A DNA stretch of 64,000 nt, from positions 11,483 to 75,482 of the forward strand of contig DASSKP010000028.1 of NCBI GenBank assembly GCA_035690365.1, in the 5' to 3' direction. Source of the DNA: Mycobacteriales bacterium. Lineage in GTDB: Bacteria > Actinomycetota > Actinomycetes > JAFAQI01. The notes beneath the pieces were generated by a model. It was not told the origin of the DNA. It saw only the letters and a list, made by a program, of their open reading frames with translations, and searched no databases. Of this stretch, positions 354 through 43,145 are shown piece by piece (within the stretch, counting starts at the first letter, position 1; each line of letters opens with the position of its first letter). The position numbers and the translations under genes are program-made.

Positions 354-410
354 TCTTGTCGATGCATCCCAGGCTGCCGCGCGGCCGTTAGCCCATGGTG
401 AGGAACGTCG

Positions 411-9444: not shown

Positions 9445-9455
9445 CCGCCGGTCGA

Positions 9456-10661: not shown

Positions 10662-10697
10662 CGGAGCCAGCCTACGCGTGGATTCTTAAGGTCTCGT

Positions 10698-10931
10698 TCA
10701 ACCCGCGGGTCGTGAGCTCGCCACCCAGCGACCGGGACCGTGGTCGAGGGGGTGGCGCAGCATCGCGCGTCGATCGGCCCAGCCGGACCGTCGCGGCGCA
10801 GCCTGGTCGGTGGGGGCGTGGACAGAACTCAAGGCGACGACGAGAGCCGCGAGCGCCTCGGGCCCCGGATCGCCCCCGTGGACGACGCGCAGCAGCGGCA
10901 CGTCGGCGTCACTGTCCCCGGCGGTGCTCAC
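10698..10931 (-). CDS. Acyl-CoA carboxylase epsilon subunit
   Basis: The 77 aa product ([22 protein letters not shown]) is typical of AccE/PccE. Its GTG start overlaps the stop of the beta-subunit gene as GTGA. Confidence 0.7.
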
Positions 10932-12523: not shown

Positions 12524-12540
12524 GGCCGTAGCGTACGAGC

Positions 12541-14178
12541 ATGCCCGCGGTGTCGGTCGTCGTCATCTGCTTCAACGACGCTGAGCACCTCGGCACGGCC
12601 GTCCGGTCGGCGACGGCACAGACGCTCCGTGACCTCGAGGTCGTCGTCGTGGACGACGGCTCGGACGACGCCACCCCGGACCTCGCCGCCGCTCTCGCAG
12701 CAGCCGATCCACGCGTCCGCTATCACCGGCTGGAGACGAACAGCGGCGGCTGCAGCCGTCCGCGCAACGTCGGCATGTCGCTCGCGACCGGCGACTACGT
12801 CACGTTCCTCGACAGCGACGACGTGCTGCCGCGCCTCGCGTGCACTCGCCTGCTCCGCGCCGCCCGGCGGACCGACGCGGACATCGTCTGCGGCAGATGG
12901 GTGCGCCGCCACCACCGGCCGACCCGCTACATCGAGGCGCACCGCGAGCTCTACGCGCGTGCGGCTCTGGTCGACGGGATCGCCGAGCGGCCGCAGCAGC
13001 TGTTCGACACACCCGCGCCGGGCAAGCTCTACCGGCGCAGCTTCCTCGTCGAGCAGCAGCTGACATTTCCCGAGGGGCTGCTCTACGAGGACCTGCTCTT
13101 CACGACGGAGGCCTATGTCAGCGCCCGGCGGATCGCCGTCGTGCCCGACCTCGTCTACGTCTGGAACGTGCGTCGCGACGCCGAGACGCCGTCGATCACC
13201 AACCGCGCGGAGCTGCGCAACTGGCGTGACCGCTTCGAGGTGCATCGCCGCATCGACGCCCATCTCGCTCGGGCCGGCGTGCCGCTCGCCGTCGTACGAG
13301 CCAAGCAGGCGAAGTTCCTGTCGGCGGACTTCACGGTGTTCCTCCGCGACCTGAGAAGTCGCCGCACCGACGAGCGGTCGGCCCTTCTCGAGCTCGCACG
13401 GGCCTACCTGTCCGGCATCGACGAGCAGAGCTGGCCGCAACAGCCGGTCGGTCCGCGGGTCGCGGCTGTGCTCGCTGCCCGAGGTGACCTTCCCGGCGTG
13501 CTGGCGGCCGCGGACTTCGCGGTCACCGGCGGCCTGATGGCCCGGCTCAGCGCCCAGGGCGACCGGCTGCGCTGGACGGCCGACCACGCCGACGCGGGAG
13601 ACGCACTCGACGTCACCACGACCGGCCTACTGACCACCGACTTCGCGTCGACGCCGTTCCTGGCGACGTTTGAGCATGCCCGGTGGGAGGGGGACCGCCT
13701 GTCGTTCGACGGCCGCGTGTACGACGTCCTGCACCGGCTCGCTCCGGCGCAGTCGCTCACCGGCCGGTTGCTGGTGCGCGGCCGGATCGGCGGAGTGCTC
13801 TGGTCGGCTCCGCTGGTGCTGTCGGACGCCGGCGGCGACGTCAGGTTCAGCGGCCGGGTCGACCTTGCGGCGCTGGGCAGGACGCTCGGCCGGCCGACCG
13901 TCGGTCATGAGCTGCGCCTGCTCGTCGAGCTGCGCCGGGGGGACCAGCGGGTCGTCCGCCCGCTGACCGGGCGCGATGCCGAACTCCCGCCCGCCGACCA
14001 TCAGCTGCCGACCCCCTGGCGCCGGCTGGTGGGTGACCGGGTCCGGCTGGCCGAGGTCAACGGCCGGCTCGTCCTGCAGCTCACCGCGTTGCCGCAGATC
14101 ACCGACCGCGCGATCGCGGCGGGTTCGTGGGCGCGTTACGTCGCCCAGCAGGCCGCGGGGCGCCTCCACCGGTCGTAA
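12541..14178 (+). CDS. GT2 glycosyltransferase with a long C-terminal extension of unknown function
   Basis: The N-terminus [20 protein letters not shown]...[10 protein letters not shown] and the motif LDSDD are GT2 hallmarks. The N-terminal half resembles the GT2 at 33337..34449. Confidence 0.75.
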
Positions 14179-14187
14179 CGTGGCCGG

Positions 14188-14994
14188 GTGTCGCAGTGGT
14201 CGGACCTCGAGCGGCCGCCACTGTCGGCGGCCCGGCTGGGCGCTGTCCTCCGCGACGACCCGCTGTGGACCGCGGTCGAGGTCCGGCCGTCGACGACGTC
14301 GACCAACGCCGATGTCGCCGCGGCGGCCCGCGAGGGCGCCGCGGAGGGGCTGGTCGTCCTCGCCGAGGAGCAACGGGCCGGCCGTGGCCGGCTCGGCAGG
14401 TCGTGGGAGGCGCCCGCGCGTTCGTCCGTGCTGATGTCGCTCCTGCTCCGCCCGGACCTGCCGGTCGCCTCGCTGCCGTTGATTCCGTTGCTCACGGGTG
14501 TCGCTGTTGTCGAGTCGACGCGCGGGGTGGGCGAGGTGTCGAGCTCCCTGAAGTGGCCGAACGACGTGCTCGTGTCCGGCCGCAAGCTCGGCGGCATCCT
14601 CGTCGAGCGGCTCGACGCCGCGGTCGTCGTCGGCATCGGGCTCAACGTCACGCTCCGTGCGGAGGAGCGACCGGTCGAGACGGCGACCAGCCTCGCGATC
14701 GAGGGTGGCAGCACCGATCGGGAGCCGCTGGTGAAGGAGATGCTGCGCTCGTTCTCCCGGCGATACCGCGCATTTGTGGACGCACACGGTGCGGCGGACG
14801 CGGTGATGCCGGCGTACCGCTCGGTCTGCGAGACGATCGGCAGGCAGGTGCGAATCGAGCTGCCAGGGGGGCGCACAGTGACCGGTCGAGCGGTGGACGT
14901 CGATGACAGCGGGCAGCTCCTCGTCGAGGACTCCGAGGGCGTGACCGCCGGCTGGTCCGCCGGCGACGTGACGCACGTCAGGAGCGCGGACTGA
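14188..14994 (+). CDS. birA: Biotin--[acetyl-CoA-carboxylase] ligase
   Basis: It has the GRGRLGRSW biotin-binding motif and LKWPNDVL.SGRKLGGILVE. It lies next to the biotin-dependent carboxylase genes. Confidence 0.85.
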   Translation: MSQWSDLERPPLSAARLGAVLRDDPLWTAVEVRPSTTSTNADVAAAAREGAAEGLVVLAEEQRAGRGRLGRSWEAPARSSVLMSLLLRPDLPVASLPLIPLLTGVAVVESTRGVGEVSSSLKWPNDVLVSGRKLGGILVERLDAAVVVGIGLNVTLRAEERPVETATSLAIEGGSTDREPLVKEMLRSFSRRYRAFVDAHGAADAVMPAYRSVCETIGRQVRIELPGGRTVTGRAVDVDDSGQLLVEDSEGVTAGWSAGDVTHVRSAD

Positions 14995-15521
14995 TGTCGC
15001 CGTTCCCGACCCGGCTGCTGGGTGATGACGAGCAGGTCGTCCTCGACCTGCATCCGCACTGGAAGCGGATCATCGTCCCGGCCTTGCTCGTGCCGGTCGT
15101 CGTCGGACTGGCGTCGTACCTCGTCTTCCTGGTCCCGGACGGCTCGTTCCGCACTCCGCTGCGCTGGGCGATCCTCGTGGTGGCGGTGCTCGTCCTGCTG
15201 CGCTGGTCGCTGTGGCCGTTCCTGAAGTGGCTGACGACGCGCTACGTCCTCACCAACCGCCGCGTCGTCATCCGCAGTGGCGTCCTGTCACGGTCGGGGC
15301 GTGACATCCCGCTGACCCGGGTCAACGACGTGTCCTTCCGGCATTCGGTCATCGACCGGATGTTGCGGTGCGGGACCTTGACCATCGAGTCCGCCGGGGA
15401 GCAGGGGCAGGTGGTCCTGCCGGAGGTGCCGGACGTCGAGTCGGTCCAGCGCCAGGTGCTGCGGCACGCCGAGGACGAGACGCTGCGGGTGGCGCGGGCG
15501 ACGGACGCGCAGACGTCCTGA
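14994..15521 (+). CDS. Membrane protein with a bacterial PH (bPH_2/YdbS-like) domain
   Basis: Two N-terminal TM helices are followed by YVLTNRRVVIRSGVLSRSGRDIPLTRVNDV. The ATG shares one base with the birA stop (TGATG). Confidence 0.6.
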   Translation: MSPFPTRLLGDDEQVVLDLHPHWKRIIVPALLVPVVVGLASYLVFLVPDGSFRTPLRWAILVVAVLVLLRWSLWPFLKWLTTRYVLTNRRVVIRSGVLSRSGRDIPLTRVNDVSFRHSVIDRMLRCGTLTIESAGEQGQVVLPEVPDVESVQRQVLRHAEDETLRVARATDAQTS

Positions 15522-15535
15522 GGCAGTATCGAGCG

Positions 15536-16513
15536 GTGCCGTCGGACGATGTCCCCGCCGCCCTCGAGCGTGAGCTGCTCGGAGGCGACCGCCGTTACAC
15601 GCGGGTGGAGGTGGCGGAGCAGGCCGGTGTTCCGGTCGAGCAGGCGCGCATCTTGTGGCGGGCTCTCGGCTTCGCGGACGTCGGCGACGACAACGTCGCC
15701 TTCACGGAGCAGGACGTGGAGGCGCTGCGCGCGGTCGACGGGCTCGTGCAGCGCGGCGTCATCGACGCGAGCACGCAGCTGGCGATGACGCGGGCGATGG
15801 GCCAGTCGTTGGCGCGGCTGGCCGACTGGCACGTGTCTGCCATCACGTCGGCACTCGAAGCCGAAGCGCCCGCGGATGCCGAGGACGCCGCGGCGGTGGC
15901 GCACGAGCTCGTTCCGGTCGTCGAAGGACTGATCGGCTACATCTGGCGGCGCCATCTGGCGGCGACGGCGAGCCGCGCCCTCGCCGACGACCGTACGTCG
16001 CCATCGACGTCGCTCGTCGTGGGGTTCGCTGACCTCGTCGGCTTCACGTCGTTGACCCGCGACGTCGGCGAAGCAGAGCTGGCCGGCGTCGTGGAGACCT
16101 TCGAGGCGCTCGCGTCCGATGTCATCGCCGAGCACTCGGGCCGGGTCGTGAAGACGCTCGGCGACGAGGTGATGTTCACGGCCGACGACCCCGCCCAGGG
16201 GGCGCAGATCGCACTCGAGCTCGCCGACCGGGTCGACGCGGCGGATGGCGTTCCCGATGTGCGGATCGGCCTTGCCTGGGGCGCGGTGCTCGCCCGGCTC
16301 GGTGACGTCTACGGCGAGCCGGTCAACATCGCCAGCAGGCTGACCTCCATCGCCCGGCCGGCCAGCATCCTCGTCGACCGCGAGCTCGCGACCGAGCTCG
16401 AGGAGGACCCGAGGTTCCGGTTGCGCCGGGTGCCGCCACGGCCGGTGCGCGGTTACGCGTTGCTCCACGCGAGCCGGTTGCGCCGCGCGGAAGCCGAGGA
16501 CAAGGCCGACTAG
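15536..16513 (+). CDS. Class III adenylate cyclase with an N-terminal helical regulatory domain (Rv1264-like architecture)
   Basis: The catalytic core motifs are VVGFADLVGFTSL, VKTLGDEVMF and GEPVNIASRL. The GTG start at 15536 was chosen just after the upstream stop and is uncertain. Confidence 0.75.
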   Translation: MPSDDVPAALERELLGGDRRYTRVEVAEQAGVPVEQARILWRALGFADVGDDNVAFTEQDVEALRAVDGLVQRGVIDASTQLAMTRAMGQSLARLADWHVSAITSALEAEAPADAEDAAAVAHELVPVVEGLIGYIWRRHLAATASRALADDRTSPSTSLVVGFADLVGFTSLTRDVGEAELAGVVETFEALASDVIAEHSGRVVKTLGDEVMFTADDPAQGAQIALELADRVDAADGVPDVRIGLAWGAVLARLGDVYGEPVNIASRLTSIARPASILVDRELATELEEDPRFRLRRVPPRPVRGYALLHASRLRRAEAEDKAD

Positions 16514-16522
16514 CCTGGGCTC

Positions 16523-17440
16523 GTGAGCGACCTTCCTCAGCGGATCAGCCTGCGCGAGGTCGGGCCGCGCGACGGCTTGCAGAACGAAGCGCCGGTGCCC
16601 ACCGAGGCCAAGGTCGAGCTGATCGACGCGCTGTCCCGGACCGGGGTCGGCCGGATCGAAGCGGTCAGCTTCGTGCATCCCAAGGCCATCCCGCAGATGG
16701 CAGATGCCGCCGAGGTGTGGCAGCACGTCACTCGCAACGACGACGTGCGCTACTCCGCTCTCGTGCCCAACCTCAAGGGCGCACAGCGGGCGCTCGACGC
16801 CGGCTTCCGCGAGCTCGAGATCGTGGTCAGTGCGAGTGACACGCACAACCGCAAGAACATCAACCGTTCCACCGACGAGTCTCTCGACGAGATCGCGGAG
16901 GTCATCGACGTCGTCCACGACAACGGTGCGACCCTGCAGGTCATCGTCTCGACCGCATGGGGCTGCCCCTACGAAGGCGACGTGCCGGTCGAGCGGGTCG
17001 TCGCGGTCGCGTCCCGCGCGGTGCGCGACGGAGCCGACGGGGTGTCGTTCGGCGACACGACCGGCATGGCGACGCCGGCGCGCGTGACGCGGCTCGTCGG
17101 CGAGCTGCGGTCGGCACATCCGGAGATCCCGCTGAACCTGCACTTCCACAACACCCGCGGCACCGGCCTGGCGAACGTGCTGGCCGCCCTCGAGCTCGGT
17201 GTCGCCGACTTCGACGCGAGTGTGGGTGGGCTGGGTGGCTGTCCTTACGCACCAGGCGCGACGGGCAACGTCGCGACCGAGGAGCTCGTCCACATGGTCG
17301 AGGACATGGGGGTCGCGACCGGCATCGATCTCGACGCAATGATCGACGTCGCGGCGACGGCCGAGCGGATCGTCGGCCGCACACTGCCGTCACAGGTGCT
17401 TCGCGCGGGGCCGCGCAGTCGCACCGTGCCGGTCGGCTGA
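16523..17440 (+). CDS. Hydroxymethylglutaryl-CoA lyase
   Basis: The HMGL-like TIM barrel is indicated by REVGPRDGLQNE, SFVHPKAIPQMAD, HFHNTRGTGLAN and GGLGGCPYAPGATGN. Confidence 0.85.
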   Translation: MSDLPQRISLREVGPRDGLQNEAPVPTEAKVELIDALSRTGVGRIEAVSFVHPKAIPQMADAAEVWQHVTRNDDVRYSALVPNLKGAQRALDAGFRELEIVVSASDTHNRKNINRSTDESLDEIAEVIDVVHDNGATLQVIVSTAWGCPYEGDVPVERVVAVASRAVRDGADGVSFGDTTGMATPARVTRLVGELRSAHPEIPLNLHFHNTRGTGLANVLAALELGVADFDASVGGLGGCPYAPGATGNVATEELVHMVEDMGVATGIDLDAMIDVAATAERIVGRTLPSQVLRAGPRSRTVPVG

Positions 17441-17468: not shown

Positions 17469-18110
17469 CTAGACGTGCTCGGCGGCGGTTGCGGGTGTGG
17501 TGCTCGCGCGCTGCGCCGGCACCGCACCACCGTGGGCGCTGTGCTCCAGTCGCGCTATCTGCAGTCGGGCCAGCGCGATGCCGACGGCCGCGCCGACCGT
17601 CGGGAAGAGCCAGGCCCATCCGCCGGCCGGCTTGGTGGCCATGACGAACACGATGCCGAGGAAGCCGAACGTCGCGATGTGCCCGGGATACCAGATCTTC
17701 GGGTCGCGCGCCGCGGTGCGCAGCTCGGCACTCGGCGGGCCGTCCGGCGCCTCGTGGATGGCGGCGACCAACCGCTTCGCGGTCGGCGCGAGCAGGGCGC
17801 CCGCGATTCCCTCGATCACGACGAGCGTGACGATCGAGGTGATGACCCAACCGTCCTTGAACGAGAACCCGTCGCCCGTGTGCGCGCCGAGGTGCACCAG
17901 CCACGAGCCGAGGCCCAGCAGGACCAGCGCGACCACTGGGAACAGCGGATCGAGCCGGTGCAGCAGCACCGCCCACGGTCGCATGTGGGACACGTCGCGT
18001 GCGCTCGCCATGGCAGGCAGGCCGGCATGCACGATGCCGGCCATCGCGAACGCGACGACCACGAACGAGATGTGCAGGAACAGGACGAAACCGAACAGTG
18101 TGATGCCCAT
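17469..18110 (-). CDS. Hypothetical integral membrane protein (about 5 TM segments)
   Basis: The start was taken at MGITLFGFVLFLH (ATG at 18110). The profile is hydrophobic throughout and third-position GC is high. No family was recognised. Confidence 0.5.
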   Translation of the reverse strand: MGITLFGFVLFLHISFVVVAFAMAGIVHAGLPAMASARDVSHMRPWAVLLHRLDPLFPVVALVLLGLGSWLVHLGAHTGDGFSFKDGWVITSIVTLVVIEGIAGALLAPTAKRLVAAIHEAPDGPPSAELRTAARDPKIWYPGHIATFGFLGIVFVMATKPAGGWAWLFPTVGAAVGIALARLQIARLEHSAHGGAVPAQRASTTPATAAEHV

Positions 18111-18193
18111 CGGGACCCCCTCGTCGGCCTGAGGGTAAGGGCGGTGGCGACGTCGCGCAGGCAGATCGACCCGAATCGCTACGCTTCCGCTCG

Positions 18194-19756
18194 ATGAGCG
18201 ACTCCGAGGCCCTCCCGACCACGCAGGACGACCCCGGCCACCCGCACCTGTCACAGCTGCACGACCGGGTGCTCGCCGGTGGTCCGGCGAAGTACCACGT
18301 AGCCAACGCCGAGAAGGGCAAGCTGTTCGCCCGCGAGCGGATCCGGCTGCTCGTCGACGAAGGGTCCTTTGTCGAGGACGGCCTCTACGCCAACGTGCTG
18401 GCGGGCGACCTGCCCGCCGACGGCGTCGTCACCGGTACGGCGACCGTGGACGGCCGGCCGGTGTGGCTGATGGCCAACGACTCGACGGTGAAGGCCGGCT
18501 CGTGGGGTGCGCGCACCGTCGAGAAGATCATCCGGGCGATCGAGTCGGCGTACCGCACCGGCGTACCGATGGTGTGGCTCGTCGACTCCGCGGGCGCGCG
18601 CATCACCGACCAGGTCGAGATGTTCCCCGGCCGTCGTGGCGCAGGGAAGATCTTCCACACGCAGGTCCGGGCGTCCGGCAGCATTCCTCAGGTCTGCGCG
18701 CTGTTCGGGCCGAGTGCAGCTGGTGGCGCCTACATTCCCGCGTTCTGCGACGTCGTCGTCATGGTCGACGGCAACGCCTCCATGTACCTCGGGTCCGCGC
18801 GCATGGTCGAGATGGTCGTCGGCGAGAAGACGACGCTCGAGGAGATGGGCGGCGCGAAGATGCACTGCTCGGTCTCCGGCGTCGGCCACTTCCTGGCACC
18901 GGACGAGCCGCAGGCGATCGAGACCGTCCGGCGCTACCTGTCCTACCTTCCGTCGAACTGGACGCAGCCGCCGCCCGCGGTCGAGGCTCGCGAGCCGGGC
19001 AAGGGTGACCTGCGGGCGCTGGTGCCGGCGAGCGAGCGGCAGGCCTTCGACATGCGCAAGTACGTCAAGGCGCTGCTCGACGACGACTCGTTTCTCGAGA
19101 TCCACGCGCTCTGGGCGAAGGAGCTCGTGGTCGGCTTCGGCCGGCTCGACGGCGAAGTCGTCGGCATCGTGGCCAACAACCCGATGTTCAAAGGCGGCGT
19201 GCTGTTCACCGACTCCGCCGACAAGGCTGCGCGGTTCATCCAGCTGTGCGACGCGTTCAACGTGCCGCTGCTCTTCCTCGCCGACGTGCCCGGCTTCATG
19301 GTCGGCACCGCGGTGGAGCGCGAAGGCATCATCCGGCACGGCGCCAAGATGATCAGCGCCGTCTCGGAGGCGACGGTGCCGAAGATCTCGGTCATCGTCC
19401 GCAAGGCCTACGGCGCGGGCCTCTATGCCATGGCCGGCCCGGGCTTCGAGCCCGATGCGACGATCGCCTTGCCCACGGCGATGATTGCGGTCATGGGTGC
19501 CGAGGCGGCCGTCAACGCCGTCTACTACAACCGCATCCAGGCGATCGAGGACGAGGACGAGCGCGCCGCGTTCGTGCAGAAGCTGCGCGACGAGTACAAC
19601 GCCGACATCGACGTCGTGCGGCTCGCGAGCGAGCTCGTCGTCGACGCGATCGTCGAGCCGGAAGAGCTGCGCACCGACCTGATCCGGCGCCTGGCGACGT
19701 ACCGGTCGAAGGACCGTTCGTTCTCCCGGCGCCGCCACGGCGTCACGCCCGTTTGA
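18194..19756 (+). CDS. Acyl-CoA carboxylase carboxyltransferase subunit (second paralog; methylcrotonyl/other acyl-CoA type)
   Basis: The carboxyl-transferase domain motifs are ARERIRLLVDEGSF, VDSAGARI and GPSAAGGAYIPA. The neighbouring HMG-CoA lyase suggests branched-chain acyl-CoA catabolism. Confidence 0.8.
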   Translation: MSDSEALPTTQDDPGHPHLSQLHDRVLAGGPAKYHVANAEKGKLFARERIRLLVDEGSFVEDGLYANVLAGDLPADGVVTGTATVDGRPVWLMANDSTVKAGSWGARTVEKIIRAIESAYRTGVPMVWLVDSAGARITDQVEMFPGRRGAGKIFHTQVRASGSIPQVCALFGPSAAGGAYIPAFCDVVVMVDGNASMYLGSARMVEMVVGEKTTLEEMGGAKMHCSVSGVGHFLAPDEPQAIETVRRYLSYLPSNWTQPPPAVEAREPGKGDLRALVPASERQAFDMRKYVKALLDDDSFLEIHALWAKELVVGFGRLDGEVVGIVANNPMFKGGVLFTDSADKAARFIQLCDAFNVPLLFLADVPGFMVGTAVEREGIIRHGAKMISAVSEATVPKISVIVRKAYGAGLYAMAGPGFEPDATIALPTAMIAVMGAEAAVNAVYYNRIQAIEDEDERAAFVQKLRDEYNADIDVVRLASELVVDAIVEPEELRTDLIRRLATYRSKDRSFSRRRHGVTPV

Positions 19757-21804
19757 CCGAGCGGGAGCCGGGCCCCGCCCGGCTGCGCAGCGAGACCGTC
19801 GCGTTCGGGTTCGTCGACGGTGCGGTGGTGACGTTCGCCTGGTTCACGCTGCTCGCCCACCTGTGGGACATCGTCAACGGGCGGACGACGGTCCTGCTCG
19901 TCGTCTGGGTGATGACCGCACCCCTTGTCCAGCTGGCGTTGCGCCGCTTCGGGTCGCGGTCGCTGCCCGGTCGGCACGAGCCGCCGGCGTGGACCGTGCG
20001 GCTGCAGCGCGCAACCGCCGGCCACCGGCGCCGACTGGTCGTTGCCGCGATGGTGTGCGCCGTGACGGGGTCGGTGCTTCTCGGTACGTCGACCCGGGCG
20101 AGCTGGCTGCTCGGTTGGGCGCTCGCGCTGATCGCCGTGGTGGTCGGCGGTCTCGCCGTCGTCATCGCCGGAGACGGTGCCGGCGACGGGGCCCGGGACA
20201 GCGACCCGCGGCCGGCGCTCGGCCATCGGGCCGCGCGGACGGGGTTGGCGGTCGCGGTGATCGCCGGGCTCGGTCTCGGTCTCTGCAGCCTGTTCACGGT
20301 GTCACCGACCGACGACGACACCTACTACGTCAACCGCACCACGTGGATCGCGCAGCACGGAAGCATCCCCGACCACGACACGGTGTTCAGTCACGACCGG
20401 CTGCCCAGTCTCTACGAACCTGCGATCGGGACCTTCGAGACCTTTGCCGGAGCTGTCGGACACCTCACCGGCGCCAGTGGCGCGACGATGTCCTATCTCG
20501 TGCTCGGGCCGATGCTGCTCGCCCTCCTGCCGTTGGCTCTCTGGCGCGCGATCGTGGCCGTGCGGCTCGACCGGCCGGTGCTCGGCCTCGTCGTGGCTCT
20601 GACGTTCCTCGTCATGACCGGCGGCGGGCAGCAGTGGTTCGGGGAGATGGTGCTGCGGCGACCGTGGCAGACCAAGGAGATGTTCGCGGCCGTGATGGTG
20701 CCGCTGCTCTACGGCTACGCACTGGAGTTCGGTCGCACCCGGCGCGTCGGCGCCGCAGCTCTGGCCCCCCTGGCGGTGGTCTGCTCGGTCGGGCTCACGT
20801 CATCAGCCGCGGCGCTTGCACCGGCCGTGGTCGTCGTGCTCGCGGTCACGGGCTACCTGTGCTGGGGGAGCCGCTTCCTCGCGCCGCTCGCCGTGGCACT
20901 CGTCTACCCGCTCATCTGCCTGTTCGCCTACCGGCAGGGTGGGTCCTCGTCCGCTTTCAGCTCGACGACGCGCGCGGCGTATCACGTTCCCTACGACCTC
21001 TGGCACTGGTTCCTCGGCGCCGGGCTCGTCGGTGTTCTGGTCGGTCTCGCTCTCAGCGCCGGTTATCTCGGCTCGGGCTGGCGACCTGCGCGGCTCGCGC
21101 TGCTCGGCGGTGCGCTCGCGGTGCTCGTCGCACTCAGTCCACGGGTGCTCGACGCCGCCGGGCCGCTTCTCGGTGGCGCGCCGACAGCGTGGCGCATGAC
21201 CTGGGTCGCGCCGCTGCTGCTGCTCGTGGCCGGTGTGGTCCCGGCCGTCGGTGCCGTAGCGGTCGTGGCCGGTCGCCGGCTGCCCGGACGCGCTCTCACG
21301 GTGGTCGCCGCGGTGGTGGTGGCGGCGCTGGCGGCACTGGGGACGCCTGTCTCGTCGAGCACGGACACGCACTGGTCCGCGCGGCCGCGTTTCGATCTCG
21401 GGCCGGAAGCGGCAGCCGCTGCCGATCTGGTCCGTCTCGCGCGAAACCGGGGGACGGTCGCCGGGCCGGAGCCGGTCAACCTTGCGGTCGCTGTGGCCCA
21501 CGCCGGTGACGTGCTCGCTCTCGACCCGCGCAGCTACTACGGGCAGCTCCTCGCGAAGCGAGCACACGGTGCGATGAAGATGAGGCGTCGGGTGCAGCTG
21601 ACGCTGTGGCTCACCGGTGGCATCGGCGGACTGCCCAATCGGGTGCAGGCGGCACGGCTCGCCCAGTGGCCGGTGACCGCTGTGTGCGTCAACCGCGCCA
21701 TGCCCGTGGAAGAGGCGGCCGCCGTCGTCACCGCTCTCCGTCGCGCCGGCTACCGGTCTGCGGGCAGCGACCGCTTCTGTGAGCTGCTCGCCCGGCCGGG
21801 CTGA
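19753..21804 (+). CDS. Large polytopic membrane protein, paralog A; putative GT-C-type glycosyltransferase/polymerase
   Basis: The product is about 683 aa with at least 12 predicted TM segments and the loop motif SPTDDDTYYVNRTTWIAQHG. It aligns over its full length with 37326..39410. A TTG start overlapping the upstream stop (TTGA) was chosen by alignment with the paralog and is uncertain. Confidence 0.7.
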   Translation: MTEREPGPARLRSETVAFGFVDGAVVTFAWFTLLAHLWDIVNGRTTVLLVVWVMTAPLVQLALRRFGSRSLPGRHEPPAWTVRLQRATAGHRRRLVVAAMVCAVTGSVLLGTSTRASWLLGWALALIAVVVGGLAVVIAGDGAGDGARDSDPRPALGHRAARTGLAVAVIAGLGLGLCSLFTVSPTDDDTYYVNRTTWIAQHGSIPDHDTVFSHDRLPSLYEPAIGTFETFAGAVGHLTGASGATMSYLVLGPMLLALLPLALWRAIVAVRLDRPVLGLVVALTFLVMTGGGQQWFGEMVLRRPWQTKEMFAAVMVPLLYGYALEFGRTRRVGAAALAPLAVVCSVGLTSSAAALAPAVVVVLAVTGYLCWGSRFLAPLAVALVYPLICLFAYRQGGSSSAFSSTTRAAYHVPYDLWHWFLGAGLVGVLVGLALSAGYLGSGWRPARLALLGGALAVLVALSPRVLDAAGPLLGGAPTAWRMTWVAPLLLLVAGVVPAVGAVAVVAGRRLPGRALTVVAAVVVAALAALGTPVSSSTDTHWSARPRFDLGPEAAAAADLVRLARNRGTVAGPEPVNLAVAVAHAGDVLALDPRSYYGQLLAKRAHGAMKMRRRVQLTLWLTGGIGGLPNRVQAARLAQWPVTAVCVNRAMPVEEAAAVVTALRRAGYRSAGSDRFCELLARPG

Positions 21805-21810
21805 CGCCGA

Positions 21811-22293
21811 TCAGACCAGTGCGGCGCGCTCCGCATCCGCCGTGCGGGACGGCTCGGGCTCCAGGAACACCCAGCGCTTGAACGACCAGAAGCGGAACAC
21901 CATCGCGACGCCGACGCCGACGATGTTGCCCCAGAAGTTGCGGGCGAGCAGCGAGTCCTGGTGCAGGACGTACTCGCCGAAGGCGAGACAGCCCAGCGTG
22001 ATGCCCAGCGCGATGGCGCTCAGCACCAGGAACAGGAGGTACTCCCGCCGGACGCCCGTGCGCGCCCGGTCCTTCCACGTCCAGTGCCTGTTCATGAAGT
22101 ACGACGACGTGGCCGCGACGATCGTGGAGATGCCCTTCGCCGTCAGCGGCCGGCTGGACAGCAGGCTGACGACGAGAATGTTGAACAGCCCGACGTCGAC
22201 CACGTAGTTGATCGCTCCGACGATGCCGAACTTGGCGATCTCGTGGATCAGGGTCTGGAACGGCGAGTAGACGTTGCGGAGCCGAGCAAGCAC
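21811..22293 (-). CDS. GtrA family membrane protein (putative lipid-linked sugar flippase)
   Basis: The 160 aa product has 4 TM segments and the motifs KFGIVGAINYVVDVGLFN and RFWSFKRWVF, which are typical of GtrA-like proteins. Confidence 0.8.
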   Translation of the reverse strand: MLARLRNVYSPFQTLIHEIAKFGIVGAINYVVDVGLFNILVVSLLSSRPLTAKGISTIVAATSSYFMNRHWTWKDRARTGVRREYLLFLVLSAIALGITLGCLAFGEYVLHQDSLLARNFWGNIVGVGVAMVFRFWSFKRWVFLEPEPSRTADAERAALV

Positions 22294-22340
22294 CTCATCA
22301 CCGTACTGGTCCGCTCACCGGCGATCCCGCTCCGCGTGGG

Positions 22341-23516
22341 TCAGCCGAGCAGCTCGTCGAACAGACGCTCCCAGCGTTGCGCGACCGCATCCACCTGCAG
22401 GGAGGCAACGCTGCGCCGTGCTGCGGACCCCAACGCGGTCCGCAGCTCAGGGTTGCTGATGACTCGCTCCAGGCCGTCGGCGAGCGCCCCGGCGTCGCCG
22501 GGCGGGACCACGATGCCGTCGACACCGTCGTCGATGATCTGGCGGATTCCCGGTGCGCAGTCGACGGCGACGCAGGGCACTCCGCAGGCCATGGCTTCGA
22601 GCAGCACGAGGGGCAGGCCTTCACGGTCCGAGGAGAGCGCCAGGGCCGACGCTCCCATGAGTGCCGCGGCGACGTCGTCGGTCGGACCCATCAGCTGCAC
22701 ACCGTCCTGGAGGTGTGCCCGGGCGATCTCCTGCTCGAGATCGGCGTGCAGGCTGCCTTCGCCGTAGATCCGGAGCTGCCACTGCGGGTGGCGGTCCCGC
22801 AAGAGCCGCCACGCTGCGACCAGCAGGTCGTAGCGCTTCTCGGGCTCGAGGCGGCCGATCGCGACGACGACGGGAGCGGTGAGCTGCGAGACCCGGTCCG
22901 GCCACAGCGGCAGCGGGTTGGGCATGACCTGCACGTTCGGCAGGCCCTCCTGTCGCCACTTGTCGGCGTCGGCGTCCGTGAGGAGGAGGACGGCGTCGAG
23001 GTCGCGGTAGAGCCGGCGGACGCGTTCGTACCGTGACGGGCCGGTCGTTCCCGGCTGCAGCACGTGCGAGGCCTCGAACGACTCGTGGCTCATGCCGACG
23101 ACCTTCAGGTGCCGCGTGTCGGCGTCCGCGACCCAGCGCATCGCCCAGACCTGGGCGACGATCACGATTCCGCTGTCGACCTCCGCGAAGAGTTGTTGCA
23201 GCCGCTTCACGTGCCGGCGGTGCAGAACGCGGCGCAACACCTCGCGGGCGACCTCCGACGGATGGATGTAGTCGGGAAAGCTCCGTGGTTCCCAGGGGGC
23301 TGGTTCGCCGCGGCCGAGTGTCACGGTGACGTAACCGGCGCCCGGCCGCAGCTTGCGCGAGCCGGCACCTGGCCCGACGCCGATCAGCTCGACGCGATGT
23401 CCGCGCGCCGCCAGGCCGGCGGCGACGGCATGCACGACGCGTTGCACACCGCCGATCTCCTCGACGTTGTTGGCGACGATGAACACGTTGCGCCGCTTGT
23501 CGGCCCCGCCGTTCAC
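22341..23516 (-). CDS. GT4 family glycosyltransferase
   Basis: It has the GT-B C-terminal motifs GRLEPEKRYDLL and SDREGLPLVLLEAMACGVPCVA. The GTG start at 23516 overlaps the stop of the upstream TagF-like gene as GTGA. The tracked ORF extension to 23939 is Arg/Pro-rich and looks non-coding. Confidence 0.85.
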   Translation of the reverse strand: MNGGADKRRNVFIVANNVEEIGGVQRVVHAVAAGLAARGHRVELIGVGPGAGSRKLRPGAGYVTVTLGRGEPAPWEPRSFPDYIHPSEVAREVLRRVLHRRHVKRLQQLFAEVDSGIVIVAQVWAMRWVADADTRHLKVVGMSHESFEASHVLQPGTTGPSRYERVRRLYRDLDAVLLLTDADADKWRQEGLPNVQVMPNPLPLWPDRVSQLTAPVVVAIGRLEPEKRYDLLVAAWRLLRDRHPQWQLRIYGEGSLHADLEQEIARAHLQDGVQLMGPTDDVAAALMGASALALSSDREGLPLVLLEAMACGVPCVAVDCAPGIRQIIDDGVDGIVVPPGDAGALADGLERVISNPELRTALGSAARRSVASLQVDAVAQRWERLFDELLG

Positions 23517-24721
23517 CGGGCGGTTCCGAAGACCGAGTGACGCACGCGCTCGGCGGCATCGCCGTGCTCGAAGCCGCAGAAGCGGCGGACGAAGGCGTCG
23601 TAACGCTCGCTGTAGGAGTCGTGTGCAGCCTGTGGTTGACGTAACCAGCCGACCACCTCGTCCATGTCCTGCACGACGGGGCCCGGCGCGACAACCTGCA
23701 GGTCGAAGTAGGAACCCCGCCGCCGGTTGTAGACCTCCAGGTCGGGCGCGTAGAAGAGCATCGGCCGCCGGAGCAGCGCGAAGTCGAACATCACCGACGA
23801 GTAGTCCGTGATGAGCGCGTCCGCTGCCAGCAGGAGCTCGGTGACGTCGGCGTGCGTCGAGACGTCGCGAGCGATCTCGGGGAAGGCGTCGGTCTCGGCC
23901 GGCCGGTCGAGGTAGTGGGCGCGCACGAGGATGAGGCATCGCTCGCCGATGTCTGCTGCGATGCGCGCGAGGTCGAGCCGCGCGGTGCCGTCCGCTCCGC
24001 GATCCCAGTCGCGGAACGTCGGGGCGTAGAGCACGACCAGCCGGTCGGTGGGCAGGCCCAGACTCCGGCGATGCTCGGCCTTCCGCGACTGGACGTCCGG
24101 CGCGAGCAGCGGGTCGTTGCGCGGATACCCCGTCCGCAACACCTGCGCCTTGTGCCGGAACGCCGCCGCGAACGTCTGCTCGGCGGTCTCGCTCTGGACG
24201 CAGAGGTGCGTCCAGCGTCCGACGGCCGCGGCGAACGCCTGCCGGCGGTCGTGACCTGCGTCGCGAAGCTCCGGTTGGTCGAAGCCCATGGTCTTGTACG
24301 CCGACCCGTGCCAGGTCTGCAGGTAGGTCGTTGCCCGCCTGCGCCGCGCGATCGCGGGGAAGCCCTGGTCGTCCACCCAGAACTCGGCACGCGCCAGCTC
24401 GAGGAGGTAGCGCCAGCTGCCGCGGCGTACGAGGACGGCGTCGGACGGAAAACCGTTGGGGTCGTCGAGATACGACCAGACGACCCTTCGCCGGTCACCG
24501 GACGCGCGCAGCGCGAGATACAGGTATTTCGGGCTGTCCGTGAAAGCGCGCCCCAGCCCGCTTTCGAACACCGCGGACCCGCGACGCATCGGGAGCCGCA
24601 TGAGGACGGCTCGGTACGTGATCGCCTTGACCGAGCGGCTCGACGGGAGGCGCCGGATGCGACGCATCAGGCGGGCCGGAGCGGAGCCGATGGGCGTCGC
24701 CCGGGCAGTCCGCACGCGCAC
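23513..24721 (-). CDS. CDP-glycerol (or CDP-alditol) glycerophosphotransferase, TagB/TagF family
   Basis: The Glyphos_transf hallmarks are present: YLQTWHGSAYKTMG, VLYAPTFRD and ALITDYSSVMFDFALLRRPMLFYAPDLEVY...RGSYFD. Confidence 0.85.
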   Translation of the reverse strand: MRVRTARATPIGSAPARLMRRIRRLPSSRSVKAITYRAVLMRLPMRRGSAVFESGLGRAFTDSPKYLYLALRASGDRRRVVWSYLDDPNGFPSDAVLVRRGSWRYLLELARAEFWVDDQGFPAIARRRRATTYLQTWHGSAYKTMGFDQPELRDAGHDRRQAFAAAVGRWTHLCVQSETAEQTFAAAFRHKAQVLRTGYPRNDPLLAPDVQSRKAEHRRSLGLPTDRLVVLYAPTFRDWDRGADGTARLDLARIAADIGERCLILVRAHYLDRPAETDAFPEIARDVSTHADVTELLLAADALITDYSSVMFDFALLRRPMLFYAPDLEVYNRRRGSYFDLQVVAPGPVVQDMDEVVGWLRQPQAAHDSYSERYDAFVRRFCGFEHGDAAERVRHSVFGTAR

Positions 24722-24795
24722 ATCCTAGGGAGGTCGCACCCTCCCGCTGCTTGTCATCGAGCCCCGCCGGTGCCGGCGTTATGCTGCCGCCAGCC

Positions 24796-25833
24796 ATGAG
24801 CGACAGCCCCGGAAGCCGTCATCTGGTGCTCGTGGTCGGCGCCGGGCGCAGCGGCACGAGCCTCACTGCCGGCATCTTCGGCCAGCTCGGGTTTCACGTC
24901 CCGCAGCCAGAGGTGCAGGCCAACTTCACCAACCCGCGCGGCTTCGGAGAACCGCGGTGGGTCGTCGACTTCCACGCAGGGTTGATGCGGCAGCAGGACA
25001 TCGAGCTGTTCGACGCGCGACCCGAGGCATGGGATGCGGCCGTGAGCGCGACTGCGTCACCCGAAGCCGCCCAGCAGCTGCACTCCTGGCTGACGACGCA
25101 GTTCGCGTCGCACGACCGCGTCGTCGTGAAGGACCCACGGACGGTCTGGTTCCTGCCGCTCTGGCAGCGGTGTGTCGGCGACCTCGGGATCCGCCTCCAC
25201 TACGTCACGACGCTCCGTCATCCGACCGAGGTGCTGAGGAGCATCCGCACGACCGCCGGTGCGGAGCAGACGGAGGCGAGCCGAGCGGCTTGGTGGGTGG
25301 CGACGACTCTCCATGCGGAACATGCGACGCGCGGTGCGGCGCGCGCCTTCCTGCTCTACGACGACCTGCTCGTCGACTGGCGCCGTGAGCTCGAGCACGT
25401 CGAGCGTGCGGCCGGCCTGCCGCTCGTGAGCTCGGCGGACGCAGCGGCGCTAACGGCGGTGGACGAGCTCGTCGACCCCTCGCTACGACGTTCGGAGTCG
25501 GGTTGGGCCGACGTGGACGTACCCGGGCCCGTGCAGCAGCTGGCAGAGAACGTGTGGGGGCAGATGACGATGCTCGCCCGCGGCGACGCCGCTCAGGAAA
25601 CCGGCGCGGCCCTCGACGAGCTGCGTTCCGCCTACGACCGCCTCTATCGAGAAGCTGCGTCGATCGCGGACTCCACTGTGCAGCACGCTGTCCGCTCGCG
25701 GGCTGCCACGGCCGCTGCGCACGCACCGGCCCCCACGGGATGGACGCGACGGATGGTCCGCCGGCTTCCGCCGCCCGTGCTCACGCGTGTCCGCCGGATG
25801 CGACGGCACCTCGGTGGTCAGCGGCGGCGATAG
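24796..25833 (+). CDS. Sulfotransferase family protein, paralog 1
   Basis: It has an N-terminal P-loop-like 5'-PSB motif (VVGAGRSGTS) and a 3'-PB-like motif (LRHPTEVLRS). It aligns with 27796..28848 and 32304..33332. The ATG at 24796 was chosen by paralog alignment. Confidence 0.7.
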   Translation: MSDSPGSRHLVLVVGAGRSGTSLTAGIFGQLGFHVPQPEVQANFTNPRGFGEPRWVVDFHAGLMRQQDIELFDARPEAWDAAVSATASPEAAQQLHSWLTTQFASHDRVVVKDPRTVWFLPLWQRCVGDLGIRLHYVTTLRHPTEVLRSIRTTAGAEQTEASRAAWWVATTLHAEHATRGAARAFLLYDDLLVDWRRELEHVERAAGLPLVSSADAAALTAVDELVDPSLRRSESGWADVDVPGPVQQLAENVWGQMTMLARGDAAQETGAALDELRSAYDRLYREAASIADSTVQHAVRSRAATAAAHAPAPTGWTRRMVRRLPPPVLTRVRRMRRHLGGQRRR

Positions 25834-27719
25834 AGATCCGGCCGCACTTCGCGATGCAAGGCACGAAGCCGCGACTTCTCCTGCGGCAGCCACTCCGACC
25901 GGACGTAGTCGATCACGTTGACGCCGTCGGTCGAGTCGACCCGGACGAGTCCGTCCGGTAGCCGCTGGCCGTCGGCGGCCAGTGCCTGGAAGACCTCCAG
26001 CTCTCGCCGCTTGCGGCTGGTGCGTCCGCTCGCGGTGAAGTCGGCGTCGGACCAGTGCGCGAACTCGTCGACGTCCAGATGCTTGAGCTCGACACACGAC
26101 CAGTCCGGAAGAGAGATGGTCCGTCCCGCCTCCGGCCAGGTCGACAGCTCCCACTCGAACGCCTTGGAGTGCTCGTAGCCCTTGCGATTCGGCCACGCCC
26201 AGTACTCCCGGTTGGCCACCCATGCGTCGAGATACGCGGTGTTGTCGTTGGCGACGTACAAGGGGTAGCGCGGCATCACCACGACGAACTCGCCGGTCTC
26301 CGTCTGCCACTCGAGGTCGCGCAACGCGGCGATGCCCGTGTCGGTCAGCACCATGTCGCCGTCCCACTTCAACGCGTAGGTCGTCGGCACGTGGGAGAAG
26401 GCCCAGTTGTAGAAGTAGGTCAGCGAGTGGATGGAGTCCGCTGCGGTGCCGAGATGCTCCGGCCCGCAACGCGACACGCTGAACGGGTAGGTCAGCACCT
26501 CGAACCGGTCGGCGGCGCCCGCTTCCGCTGCGAGACGCTGCGCCACCTCGGGTGTCCCGTCGGTGGAGCCGTTGTCGACCAGCAGCACTGAACGCACGGC
26601 GGCGAACAGCCACGGCAGCACGAACGGCAGTGCGTTCGCCTCGTTCTTGACTCTCAGCACGGCGGTGAACCCCGGCTGCAACGGAGCGTCCTCCGCCCAT
26701 CGCCAGCTGATGTCGAACGCGGACTCACCCTCACGGTTGACGATCGCGGCCTTCGCCGCGCGGCCCGCCCCGGCGGCTGTCACGCCCGTCAGCTCGCGCT
26801 CGAGCTCACGCACCCTCTGGCGCAGCCGCTGCGCCTCGTCGCCGGTGATGCCCTCTCGCACAGCGAGTCCGAGGACGCCGATGCGCGAGTGACGGTCCGC
26901 GAGTGCGTGCACGGCAGGCAGGAGCTGCTCGGTCTCCGGCGCCCATCGCTCGTCCGCAGGGCCGGCCTCGACAGCCGGGTAGCCGAAGGCGTCGAAGTCG
27001 CCGCGGTAGACGTGGTTCACCGTGGCGGCGGCCTCGGCGTCGTAGGCGTCCGACGGCATGCGGATGAGAGCCGGGTTGTCGCGGCCCGGCCGCGCCGCAC
27101 CGGTGAGCTCCTCGCCCACGTGTTCGGCGAGCAACGTCAAGGTCTCGTCCAGCCGCTCGATCCGCCCGACGTGCGTCAACGGCAGTGCGTCGGTGAGCTC
27201 GTGCTGCACCGCCCAGTGCACGTCGTGCGGTCCGCTCGGTCCGAGAGCGGCGACAAAACGACGGAAGTCGGCGACGACGTCGTCCGGCTTGCCCGGCATC
27301 CTCGGGAACCACGGCTCGGCGCCGAAGTCGTGCACGAACCTGGGCTCGCGCAAAAGCAGCTTCGACTGCCATGCGGACCACAGGCGAGCCGCCGGGTCGC
27401 GGACGAGCGCGAACCGGAGCCAGCCTGGCTCGGTCAGGGCGCGCTCGCGCAGCTCCGGCGACAGCGAACCGAGCTGATGAGACGGGCCCCACACGCGCAT
27501 GTCGTGCACGGTCAGCTCGCGGGTGACCTCGCCACCGGTCGACCGCTCGAACCGTTCGCGGGGGAGGCCGGCGAGTCGGGCGAGCAGCCACAGCACCGAC
27601 GTGCATCCGGTCTTGGGCACCGGGAGGAAGAGCAGCTTGCGGTCCGGCAGCACGATCGTGCGCGACAGGAGGTGTTCGCTGTGCGGATGTGTGTCGGCCC
27701 GGCGGGCCTCGTCCGTCAT
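25818..27719 (-). CDS. Fusion protein: N-terminal sulfotransferase (Sulfotransfer_2-like), a central helical linker and a C-terminal GT2-like glycosyltransferase
   Basis: The N-terminal part has LFLPVPKTGCTSV, ALVRDPAARLWSAW and YRGDFDAFGY. The middle has a coiled-coil-like segment, EAQRLRQRVRELERELT. The C-terminal part has VLRVKNEANALP...LLVDNGSTDGT and WDGDM. Confidence 0.7.
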   Translation of the reverse strand: MTDEARRADTHPHSEHLLSRTIVLPDRKLLFLPVPKTGCTSVLWLLARLAGLPRERFERSTGGEVTRELTVHDMRVWGPSHQLGSLSPELRERALTEPGWLRFALVRDPAARLWSAWQSKLLLREPRFVHDFGAEPWFPRMPGKPDDVVADFRRFVAALGPSGPHDVHWAVQHELTDALPLTHVGRIERLDETLTLLAEHVGEELTGAARPGRDNPALIRMPSDAYDAEAAATVNHVYRGDFDAFGYPAVEAGPADERWAPETEQLLPAVHALADRHSRIGVLGLAVREGITGDEAQRLRQRVRELERELTGVTAAGAGRAAKAAIVNREGESAFDISWRWAEDAPLQPGFTAVLRVKNEANALPFVLPWLFAAVRSVLLVDNGSTDGTPEVAQRLAAEAGAADRFEVLTYPFSVSRCGPEHLGTAADSIHSLTYFYNWAFSHVPTTYALKWDGDMVLTDTGIAALRDLEWQTETGEFVVVMPRYPLYVANDNTAYLDAWVANREYWAWPNRKGYEHSKAFEWELSTWPEAGRTISLPDWSCVELKHLDVDEFAHWSDADFTASGRTSRKRRELEVFQALAADGQRLPDGLVRVDSTDGVNVIDYVRSEWLPQEKSRLRALHREVRPDLYRRR

Positions 27720-27795
27720 TGCACCTCCAGCGTCGCGACCAGTCTAGGAACGCGGGTCGGCTGGTAACCTGACCGCGCCCCGACGAGAGGACCAG

Positions 27796-28848: not shown

Positions 28849-28860
28849 CACACTCCGGCT

Positions 28861-30015: not shown

Positions 30016-30093
30016 CCCGACGCGACGGGTCCGGCACCCGCAGTCCGGTAGCCTGATCGGGTCGATGAGCGGGCACGACGACGGAGGAGGAGC

Positions 30094-33332: not shown

Positions 33333-33336
33333 CGAC

Positions 33337-42255: not shown

Positions 42256-42335
42256 CGGTCGAGGGCGGACCGCCATTCGGGGGACGGTGGCGCGGCGATT
42301 ACAGATCGAGGTGCGATCCGTCCGACATCTGTCTG

Positions 42336-43047: not shown

Positions 43048-43117
43048 GTGACACCTCCGCAGGTGAGACGGACCGGTGCGGTGCGCGGCTCCCCGCGAGT
43101 GTCGTTGTTTCCGATCC

Positions 43118-43137
43118 GTGACCTGGTGTGACCTGGT
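43118..43137. repeat. Perfect 10-bp tandem direct repeat, GTGACCTGGT x2
   Basis: It was read directly at 43118-43127 and 43128-43137. It lies in the 98 nt gap between the menD stop (43146) and the lipoprotein start (43047). Confidence 0.9.
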
Positions 43138-43145
43138 CGGGGCGC

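Follow-up and report, generated by a model that had tools for sequence, protein, structure and literature searches.

What does the polytopic membrane protein encoded at positions 19753..21804 of a 64,000-nucleotide (nt) stretch of actinobacterial DNA do? The stretch (the window; positions 11,483 to 75,482 of the forward strand of contig DASSKP010000028.1, GenBank assembly GCA_035690365.1) belongs to a metagenome-assembled genome (MAG) of a Mycobacteriales bacterium and has a G+C content of ~70% throughout. The product of this gene (gene A) had been noticed as a membrane protein with an acidic motif and a soluble tail, in a layout likened to that of glycosyltransferases with the C-type fold (GT-C), and a paralog (gene B) had been noticed in its vicinity. 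The analysis presented here suggests that A, and likewise B, is probably a GT-C enzyme that adds a lipid-carried sugar to a wall polymer outside the membrane. This reading draws on a predicted fold, predicted topology, residue conservation and gene linkage. The original prediction named no family for A and B; a hidden Markov model (HMM) search places both in the Pfam family DUF6077 (PF19554), which is itself uncharacterised. The two genes are as follows.

19753..21804, + strand: gene A, DUF6077-family protein of 683 amino acids (aa) with a predicted GT-C fold
37326..39410, - strand: gene B, DUF6077 paralog of A, 694 aa, from an orthologue group separate from that of A

The AlphaFold2 (AF2) model of A, based on a 25-sequence alignment, has a mean predicted local distance difference test score (pLDDT) of 86.8 and a predicted template modelling score (pTM) of 0.90. 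When the model is compared with the PDB by Foldseek, all matches with a probability of at least 0.69 are GT-C enzymes, headed by three proteins.

8IF8: AftA, E-value 1e-4, TM-score (template modelling score) 0.42 (query) / 0.47
7ZLI: DPY19, E-value 5e-4, TM-score 0.44 (query)
3RCE: PglB, E-value 8e-4, TM-score 0.44 (query)

AglB, STT3, EmbB, AftB, ALG12 and ALG9 are the next GT-C matches. The other matches (transporters and pumps, together with a few soluble proteins) have probabilities of at most 0.08 and TM-scores near 0.1 (0.13 or lower), with the exception of one small methyltransferase (probability 0.21). Proteins of the Wzy/WaaL type are absent from the 50 Foldseek matches listed, and A has no Pfam match to Wzy_C (PF04932) at E ≤ 10. 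Only GT-C enzymes are credible in this comparison, which supports the GT-C-like fold first proposed for A; a transporter fold and a Wzy/WaaL fold were rejected because neither has a credible structural match. The scores were calibrated with another GT-C protein of the window, a PMT_2-like protein described below, which matches the foreign families AftA, DPY19 and PglB with E-values of 2e-3, 3e-4 and 1e-5 and TM-scores of 0.41, 0.43 and 0.48, respectively. Because the PMT_2-like protein scores in a like range against these foreign GT-C families, DUF6077 behaves as a separate GT-C family.

The predicted architecture of A also fits a GT-C enzyme. The N-terminus would be cytoplasmic and would be followed by four accessory transmembrane helices, an eleven-helix GT-C core and an α/β C-terminal domain of ~150 aa outside the membrane, with a two-helix first long outer loop that opens with D188-D189. 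The conservation of individual residues was evaluated in an alignment of 159 full-length family representatives with a median identity of 26% to A. The elements of the protein are listed below.

19786..20166, + strand: N-terminal extension of four transmembrane helices (aa 12-41, 45-67, 89-110 and 115-138) before the GT-C core in the AF2 model
20293..20373, + strand: motif FTVSPTDDDTYYVNRTTWIAQHGSIPD (aa 181-207, from the translation), which contains the DD pair
20314..20319, + strand: D188-D189, proposed catalytic or metal-binding pair that opens helix 188-202 of the first long outer loop; D188 is kept in 158/159 and D189 in 157/159 representatives
20377..20379, + strand: D209, kept in 158/159
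20659..20661, + strand: R303, kept in 154/159
20674..20676, + strand: K308, in the first turn of helix 307-329, kept in 159/159
21193..21195, + strand: R481, kept in 158/159
21340..21801, + strand: C-terminal α/β domain (aa 530-683) with five strands and six helices in the AF2 model, predicted to be extracytoplasmic
21685..21687, + strand: C645, and 21778..21780, + strand: C676; both Cys residues are present in 151/159

The model contains ~15 transmembrane helices, in agreement with the many helices first ascribed to the protein. These are the four helices of the N-terminal extension (pLDDT means of 81 to 97 for 10-residue blocks), the fifth transmembrane helix (TM5; residues 158-179) and ten further helices after the DD loop. 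The predicted DDxYYVNR-type acidic motif is present and directly follows a transmembrane helix, but this helix is the fifth and not an early one. Similarly, the motif is located in the first long outer loop, which is not the first extracytoplasmic loop by count because four extra transmembrane helices precede it. A soluble tail follows the transmembrane region, with the ~150 residues given above instead of the estimated ~170. The DD loop (aa 180-242; 63 residues) consists of helices 188-202 and 227-239, the first of which starts exactly at D188, and contains two Lys/Arg and eight Asp/Glu residues. When Lys and Arg residues are counted on the AF2 helices, the predicted inner loops contain 14 in 67 residues and the outer loops 8 in 145. 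By the positive-inside rule, the DD loop is predicted to face outward, as anticipated, and not the cytoplasm.

The DD pair is conserved among homologs, and D209, R303, K308 and R481 are positioned in predicted outer loops or at the membrane edge (span 20377..21195). That these acidic and basic outer-loop residues are nearly invariant among 159 divergent members suggests a conserved active site. In the proposed mechanism, D188/D189 would serve as the catalytic base or as metal ligands, and R303, K308 and R481 would hold the lipid phosphate, by analogy with AftA, in which Arg415 has this function (PMC10265970). The C-terminal domain would help to position the acceptor. Since the C645/C676 pair is kept in 151 representatives, the two residues probably form a disulfide in the exported domain.

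These residues also bear on whether A is an enzyme at all. DUF6077 shows no sequence relation to active GT-C enzymes, which would be compatible with a transporter or scaffold, or with a GT-C relic that has lost its activity. Such a non-enzymatic role is scarcely credible, given that transporters fail in the Foldseek comparison, that the outer-loop acidic and basic residues are invariant across the divergent members and that A is under purifying selection.

The selection on A was derived from its orthologue P0002 (78% identical to A), which is encoded at locus L020 of a close relative. The reading frame at 19753..21804 is real as predicted, with a third-position GC content of ~0.85 (over the downstream two-thirds of the stop-to-stop frame containing A). 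The ratio of nonsynonymous to synonymous substitution rates (dN/dS) between A and the L020 orthologue is 0.25 at a dS of 0.56; gene A is therefore real and under purifying selection. The start codon is TTG, and its last two bases lie inside the TGA stop codon of the carboxyltransferase gene at 18194..19756 (TTGA overlap). This start is backed by P0002, which begins at the equivalent aligned position with a likewise 4-nt overlap with its upstream gene. The least conserved part of A relative to the L020 orthologue is the N-terminal four-helix extension (65% identity).

Several observations concern the surroundings of A. Within the block 18194..23360, A is the fastest evolver relative to L020, with 78% aa identity; its neighbours are a carboxyltransferase (96%, dN/dS 0.07), a GtrA-family protein (92.5%, 0.14) and a family 4 glycosyltransferase (GT4; 90%, 0.17). 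The 4-nt overlap of the DUF6077 gene with the carboxyltransferase gene is found at 19753..19756 in the window and at 1439..1442 in L020, and a P0005-type homolog in L010 also overlaps an upstream gene (387..390). The carboxyltransferase gene, which is unrelated to A, sits among HMG-CoA-lyase-like and other genes of acyl-CoA metabolism. The window (10928..17440) and L010 (2450..8986) share a gene set beside the DUF6077 gene (A and P0005-type, respectively) in differing orientation. The set comprises the carboxyltransferase, a 545-aa family 2 glycosyltransferase (GT2), a biotin ligase, an adenylate cyclase and an HMGL-like gene, and this sharing indicates a conserved chromosomal position of the A/P0005-type DUF6077 subgroup. 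The 261-aa product of 17469..18254 (- strand) has no Pfam or NCBIfam match and looks hydrophobic by eye.

A and B exceed the PF19554 gathering cutoff of 27 bits with 47.3 and 58.3 bits, respectively, in a model that spans only about aa 105-400 of the protein. The homologs that were retrieved bear the DUF6077 annotation too. No NCBIfam model matches A or B, and no paper naming DUF6077 or PF19554 was found in the literature searched. B is a full-length paralog located 15 kb from A, as first noticed, and the two share 48% identity across 677 residues (E = 6e-162). The 40 identities once counted by eye in a 60-residue stretch are reproduced by residues 181-240, and the best stretch of this length (aa 174-233) gives 41. 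B is closer to the homologs P0004 and P0007 (57% identity) than to A (48%), and the two paralogs fall into different orthologue groups, so the A/B duplication is old. A word-indexed search yielded 26 relatives. With a profile of 25 of these, 2948 of 1.84 billion cluster representatives were matched at E ≤ 1e-3 and 1117 at E ≤ 1e-30, the 2948 representing clusters at 50% identity; the best 150 matches listed are mostly full length (about 620-760 aa). Named DUF6077 members come from Micromonospora, among them WP_434743521.1 of Micromonospora sp. SH-82, and the MAG sources of related loci are Actinomycetes, Gaiellaceae and Nostocoides.

If A and B are GT-C enzymes, a lipid-linked sugar has to reach them at the outer membrane face. 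The window encodes candidates for both steps of this supply and a further GT-C protein.

39407..40453, - strand: membrane-anchored GT2, 348 aa, PF00535; candidate polyprenyl-phosphate-sugar synthase (GtrB/DPM-synthase architecture)
21811..22293, - strand: GtrA-family small membrane protein, 160 aa, PF04138 (GtrA_DPMS_TM) with 88.8 bits; candidate polyprenyl-phosphate-sugar flippase
40588..42255, + strand: predicted third GT-C, PMT_2/ArnT-like, 555 aa, divergent from the GT2 gene

The GT2 protein has two C-terminal transmembrane helices (aa 261-279 and 294-312). Its best NCBIfam matches are AglJ, dolichyl-phosphate hexose transferase and PpgS, all below the equivalog cutoffs. The stop codon of the GT2 gene and the GTG start codon of gene B overlap by 4 nt (GTGA, 39407..39410), an indication that the two genes form one operon with possible translational coupling. 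The GtrA gene is next to A and convergent with it, as originally described, and the stop codons of the two genes are 6 nt apart. Neither Pfam nor NCBIfam matches the PMT_2-like protein itself. Among its 120 homologs, however, some have PF13231 or PF02366 domains and bear the names ArnT-like or GT39, and its AF2 model (pLDDT 89.8) matches AglB (1e-7) and ArnT (4e-7, TM-score 0.56) in Foldseek. These homolog annotations, the model and the Foldseek matches identify it as a third GT-C at the level of prediction. The gene at 42299..43417 (- strand; 372 aa), which flanks the PMT_2-like gene, is likewise unmatched in both databases.

In the proposed pathway, the GT2 (39407..40453) would use a nucleotide sugar to charge polyprenyl phosphate with a sugar at the inner membrane face, the GtrA protein (21811..22293) would move the lipid-linked sugar to the outer face, and A and B would each transfer the sugar to a cell-envelope glycopolymer. 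Since one GT2 and one GtrA would supply three GT-C genes, we infer a common donor and differing acceptors or linkages. A three-component GT-A/flippase/GT-C scheme of this kind is established for Gram-positive wall polymers (PMC5836110, PMC7389260, PMC13390465) and has a described variant that uses a MATE flippase (PMC11127046).

A candidate source of the acceptor is located between the two paralogs and contains the following genes, as identified by Pfam and NCBIfam.

22341..34449: wall-polymer block between the paralogs, which includes a GT4 gene
23513..24721: TagF-type gene (glycerophosphotransferase)
24751..25833, + strand: sulfotransferase-family gene
25818..27719, - strand: sulfotransferase-family gene
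27796..28848, + strand: sulfotransferase-family gene
30094..32307: GT2+TagF fusion
32220..33332, + strand: sulfotransferase-family gene
33091..34449: GT2 with a TarS linker

The likeliest acceptor is a teichoic-acid-like, possibly sulfated, polymer encoded by this block. An acyl-CoA dehydrogenase gene (28861..30015, + strand) is embedded among the sulfotransferase and TagF-type genes, and purK, purE and a gene for a chorismate-binding enzyme are located downstream of the block.

The gene context of DUF6077 was analyzed in nineteen further loci (L001-L004, L008-L022) and the contig of P0019, which was listed without DNA; L005-L007 are one gene on three contigs. A genome scan with closer sequences gave three loci, a first metagenome scan none and a second seven. 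The loci were compared by tblastn and annotated with Pfam. The context statistics draw on about 16 loci. Because several of the positive ones are mutually related, they amount to about four independent lineages. A recurring module is observed in the window, L002 (Gaiellaceae), L004, L008, L013, L014 and L015, and partially in L012. It is composed of DUF6077, the PMT_2-like GT-C, a membrane GT2, an NAD-dependent epimerase, a Sulfotransfer_2 protein and a Sulfotransfer_3 protein. The PMT_2-like homologs are 35-38% identical to the window copy and adjoin DUF6077 in L002, L004, L008, L013 and L014 (two copies). Sulfotransfer_2 proteins of 630-640 aa are encoded by the DUF6077 gene in L002, L008, L012, L013, L014 and L015 and are 51-55% identical to the product of 25818..27719 (633 aa); L008 additionally encodes an ATP sulfurylase and an adenosine 5'-phosphosulfate (APS) kinase. 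The sulfotransferase genes among the TagF-type genes of the window, their recurrence in six loci and the sulfate activation genes of L008 suggest a sulfated envelope polymer. In three related metagenomic loci, DUF6077 genes form tandem pairs (L008 8019..11989, L013 about 8505..11758 and L014 about 8401..11923), which echo the two paralogs of the window.

Two other context types were found. L001, L003 and the P0019 contig combine DUF6077 with LPG_synthase_TM and amino-sugar enzymes (DegT, GFO_IDH and a hexapeptide acetyltransferase), and L005 is an ABC-transporter-type polysaccharide cluster. Across the context types, a membrane-type GT2 gene is located within 10 kb of the DUF6077 gene in L001 (GtrB-type, 7 nt away), L002, L004, L008, L013 and L015. 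Most loci encode a candidate flippase in the vicinity, but its family varies. GtrA is near DUF6077 in the window, L015 and L020, the last of which, from a close relative, is arranged as in the window. A Wzx/MATE-type candidate is encoded in L004, L008, L013 and L014. LPG_synthase_TM (PF03706) is encoded in L001 (5229..6329), L002 (13994..14992), L003 (5484..6758) and the P0019 contig, which are loci without GtrA or Wzx; located beside DUF6077 or GT2 genes there, it may take the place of these flippases for the lipid-linked sugar. Three unrelated families of candidate flippase in one role agree with the prediction of the GT2/flippase/GT-C scheme. GtrA as a universal partner of DUF6077 was rejected, as an HMM built from two GtrA genes matches only the window, L015 and L020.

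The most serious rival to a monophosphate-linked single-sugar donor is that DUF6077 proteins have the GT-C fold and use a polyprenyl-diphosphate-linked oligosaccharide or polymer as the donor, either like an oligosaccharyltransferase or as the polymerase or ligase of a Wzx-dependent pathway. The best structural matches of A include enzymes with diphosphate-linked donors (PglB, AglB and STT3), and the three invariant basic outer-loop residues could bind a diphosphate. Moreover, no Wzy gene was recognised in the four loci with a Wzx-type (Polysacc_synt/MatE) flippase, and the L005 gene adjoins one for an initiating phosphoglycosyl transferase (Bac_transf). The diphosphate donor is nevertheless unlikely. 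The window and six other loci link DUF6077 to a GtrB-type GT2, a maker of monophosphate-linked single sugars, and GtrA-family proteins are associated with monophosphate-linked donors (PMC13390465). The presence of MATE/Wzx does not imply a diphosphate donor because a MATE-type flippase also serves undecaprenyl-phosphate-ribofuranose (PMC11127046). In addition, the polymerases encoded in the window are cytoplasmic TagF-type enzymes.

The loci also bear on the acceptor. A GT-C enzyme that glycosylates proteins, like an O-mannosyltransferase, or a membrane lipid instead of the neighbouring wall polymer is quite unlikely. PMT, PglB and DPY19, which are among the matches, act on proteins; L009, L010 and L021 have no polymer-synthesis neighbours; and one B-type orthologue is encoded beside an LpqB-like lipoprotein gene. 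Most of the informative loci are, however, polysaccharide or teichoic-acid-type clusters, and the PMT_2-like GT-C of the window would suit such a role better than A.

The identity of the sugar was addressed through AftA (Mycobacterium tuberculosis priming arabinofuranosyltransferase, GT85, 8IF8), the best structural match of A. In AftA, TM3-13 form the GT-C core and two extra N-terminal helices stand outside it, the catalytic Asp128 is located on the first long outer loop of two crossed helices, and an α5-β5 C-terminal domain, of a kind present in other bacterial GT-C enzymes too, covers the active site (PMC10265970). Emb proteins, like AftA, carry extra helices before the GT-C core (PMC10265970). 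A likewise has extra N-terminal transmembrane helices, a conserved Asp that opens the two-helix first long outer loop, conserved Arg/Lys residues in later outer loops and an outer α/β C-terminal domain. A differs from AftA in having four accessory helices instead of two and in lacking detectable sequence similarity. The aftA gene also has a GtrA-family gene, Rv3789, nearby. The window contains no genes of a decaprenyl-phosphate-arabinose pathway, and its linked lipid-sugar synthase is a GT2 and not a phosphoribosyltransferase.

It is improbable that A is an AftA-like pentofuranosyl (arabinofuranosyl-type) transferase that uses decaprenyl-phosphate-arabinose or a related donor. The top rank of AftA in Foldseek, the GtrA-family gene near aftA and the origin of the window in a Mycobacteriales MAG would fit such an enzyme, but the lead of AftA over DPY19 and PglB is small, A has no sequence similarity to AftA, and the GT2 linked to B is of the hexose-phosphate-lipid synthase type. 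DprE1/DprE2 and phosphoribosyltransferase genes are absent from the window. Its sole UbiA-family gene (45762..46634) adjoins MenC-like and MenD-like genes, which points to MenA. A decaprenyl-phosphate-arabinose pathway in the window was rejected on the basis of the UbiA-family gene among Men genes and the missing DprE.

The wall-polymer GT-C reading of A and B has counterparts in known three-component systems. The CsbB/GtlA GT2, GtcA (GtrA family) and YfhO/GtlB GT-C, as well as GtrA/GtrB/GtrC of Shigella and Salmonella phages, divide labour in the way proposed here, and the window similarly combines a GT2 with a transmembrane tail, a GtrA and polytopic GT-C enzymes beside TagF-type teichoic-acid genes. 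The window departs from these systems in four respects: the GT-C belongs to the sequence-unrelated DUF6077, the parts are split over two sites at a distance of 15 kb, three GT-C genes are apparently served by a single GT2 and a single GtrA, and the flippase type varies among DUF6077 loci. GT136 (ORF12 of Citrobacter youngae O1/O2) provides a precedent for a sequence-orphan GT-C that was recognised by predicted fold and context and then became a new CAZy family (PMC11127046). It is also a precedent for a Wzx/MATE-type flippase that serves a monophosphate-linked donor (PMC11127046), a situation that may also apply to L004, L008, L013 and L014. GT136, which is likened to DUF6077 here by description, differs in using pentofuranose donors made via a phosphoribosyltransferase and in having a carbohydrate-binding module, and activity has been shown for GT136 only.

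PglB, AglB and STT3 (GT66) resemble A with TM-scores of 0.37-0.44 (query-normalised) and an outer α/β C-terminal domain, but they use diphosphate-linked oligosaccharide donors and peptide acceptors, whereas the context of A points to monophosphate single-sugar donors. ArnT/PMT_2-type enzymes (GT83/GT39), represented in the window by 40588..42255, share with A the fold class and a conserved neighbourhood. In contrast to A, the PMT_2-like protein lacks an N-terminal extension of four helices, and the profile-profile probability between the two families is low (below). The four-helix N-terminal extension and the recurrent linkage to sulfotransferase genes set DUF6077 apart.

Several results weigh against a role of A as a wall-polymer GT-C enzyme. 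The Foldseek scores are modest, with E-values of 1e-4 to 1e-2 and TM-scores under 0.5, and were obtained for a predicted query structure. At the sequence level, Pfam at E ≤ 10 gives A no family other than DUF6077, and phmmer searches of the PDB sequences with A or with a 77-aa TM5-loop peptide returned no match. The 25-sequence family profile (hmmsearch against the PDB) retrieved only triosephosphate isomerase at a noise level of E = 0.39, and a profile of the loop and core from 22 diverse members retrieved from the PDB only a designed repeat protein, a spurious match via its DGDD repeats. Comparison of DUF6077 with the PMT_2-like family of the window by hhalign gave a probability of 1.3%. The topology evidence is weak, as it consists of a hand-made positive-inside count on AF2 helices, and the catalytic Asp of AftA or PglB is equated with D188/D189 by topological position only. 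The three components in the window occupy two sites 15 kb apart (GT2 with B, and GtrA with A), and the A-GtrA adjacency was confirmed only in one close relative, which is not independent. No GT2 or flippase gene is located beside the DUF6077 gene in L009, L010, L018, L021 and L022, some of which are short contigs. A conserved GT2-B adjacency in B-type orthologues was likewise looked for on L021 and L022, both short contigs, and did not turn up.

DUF6077 is, by the searches above, without detectable sequence homology to the characterised GT-C families (GT39/PMT, GT83/ArnT, GT66/STT3, GT85/AftA and GT53/Emb). The GT-C assignment is supported at the level of the fold and not of a sequence family, by the predicted fold, the conserved residues and the gene context. 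A broader reading is tentative: DUF6077 may be a sequence-orphan GT-C family at the core of a conserved actinobacterial pathway that builds or decorates a sulfated envelope glycopolymer. This pathway would possibly also employ the PMT_2-like GT-C, the membrane GT2, a flippase and sulfotransferases dependent on 3'-phosphoadenosine 5'-phosphosulfate (PAPS), and would extend from a Mycobacteriales MAG to a Gaiellaceae MAG. Outside cyanobacteria, sulfated polysaccharides are considered rare in bacteria, and a 2026 study of Actinoplanes raised sulfated envelope polymers only as a possibility (PMC13390465).

The analysis provides a functional hypothesis for a large family (2948 representatives) whose only annotation is that of a domain of unknown function. 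Because the GT2/flippase/GT-C concept is well established, the result extends known biology and overturns nothing. The linkage to sulfotransferase genes hints that Actinomycetota may make a sulfated envelope polymer. If the proposed activity is confirmed, DUF6077 would probably be recognised as a CAZy GT-C family of its own, as GT136 was (PMC11127046), and would represent a new enzyme type for the extracytoplasmic decoration of actinobacterial wall polymers.

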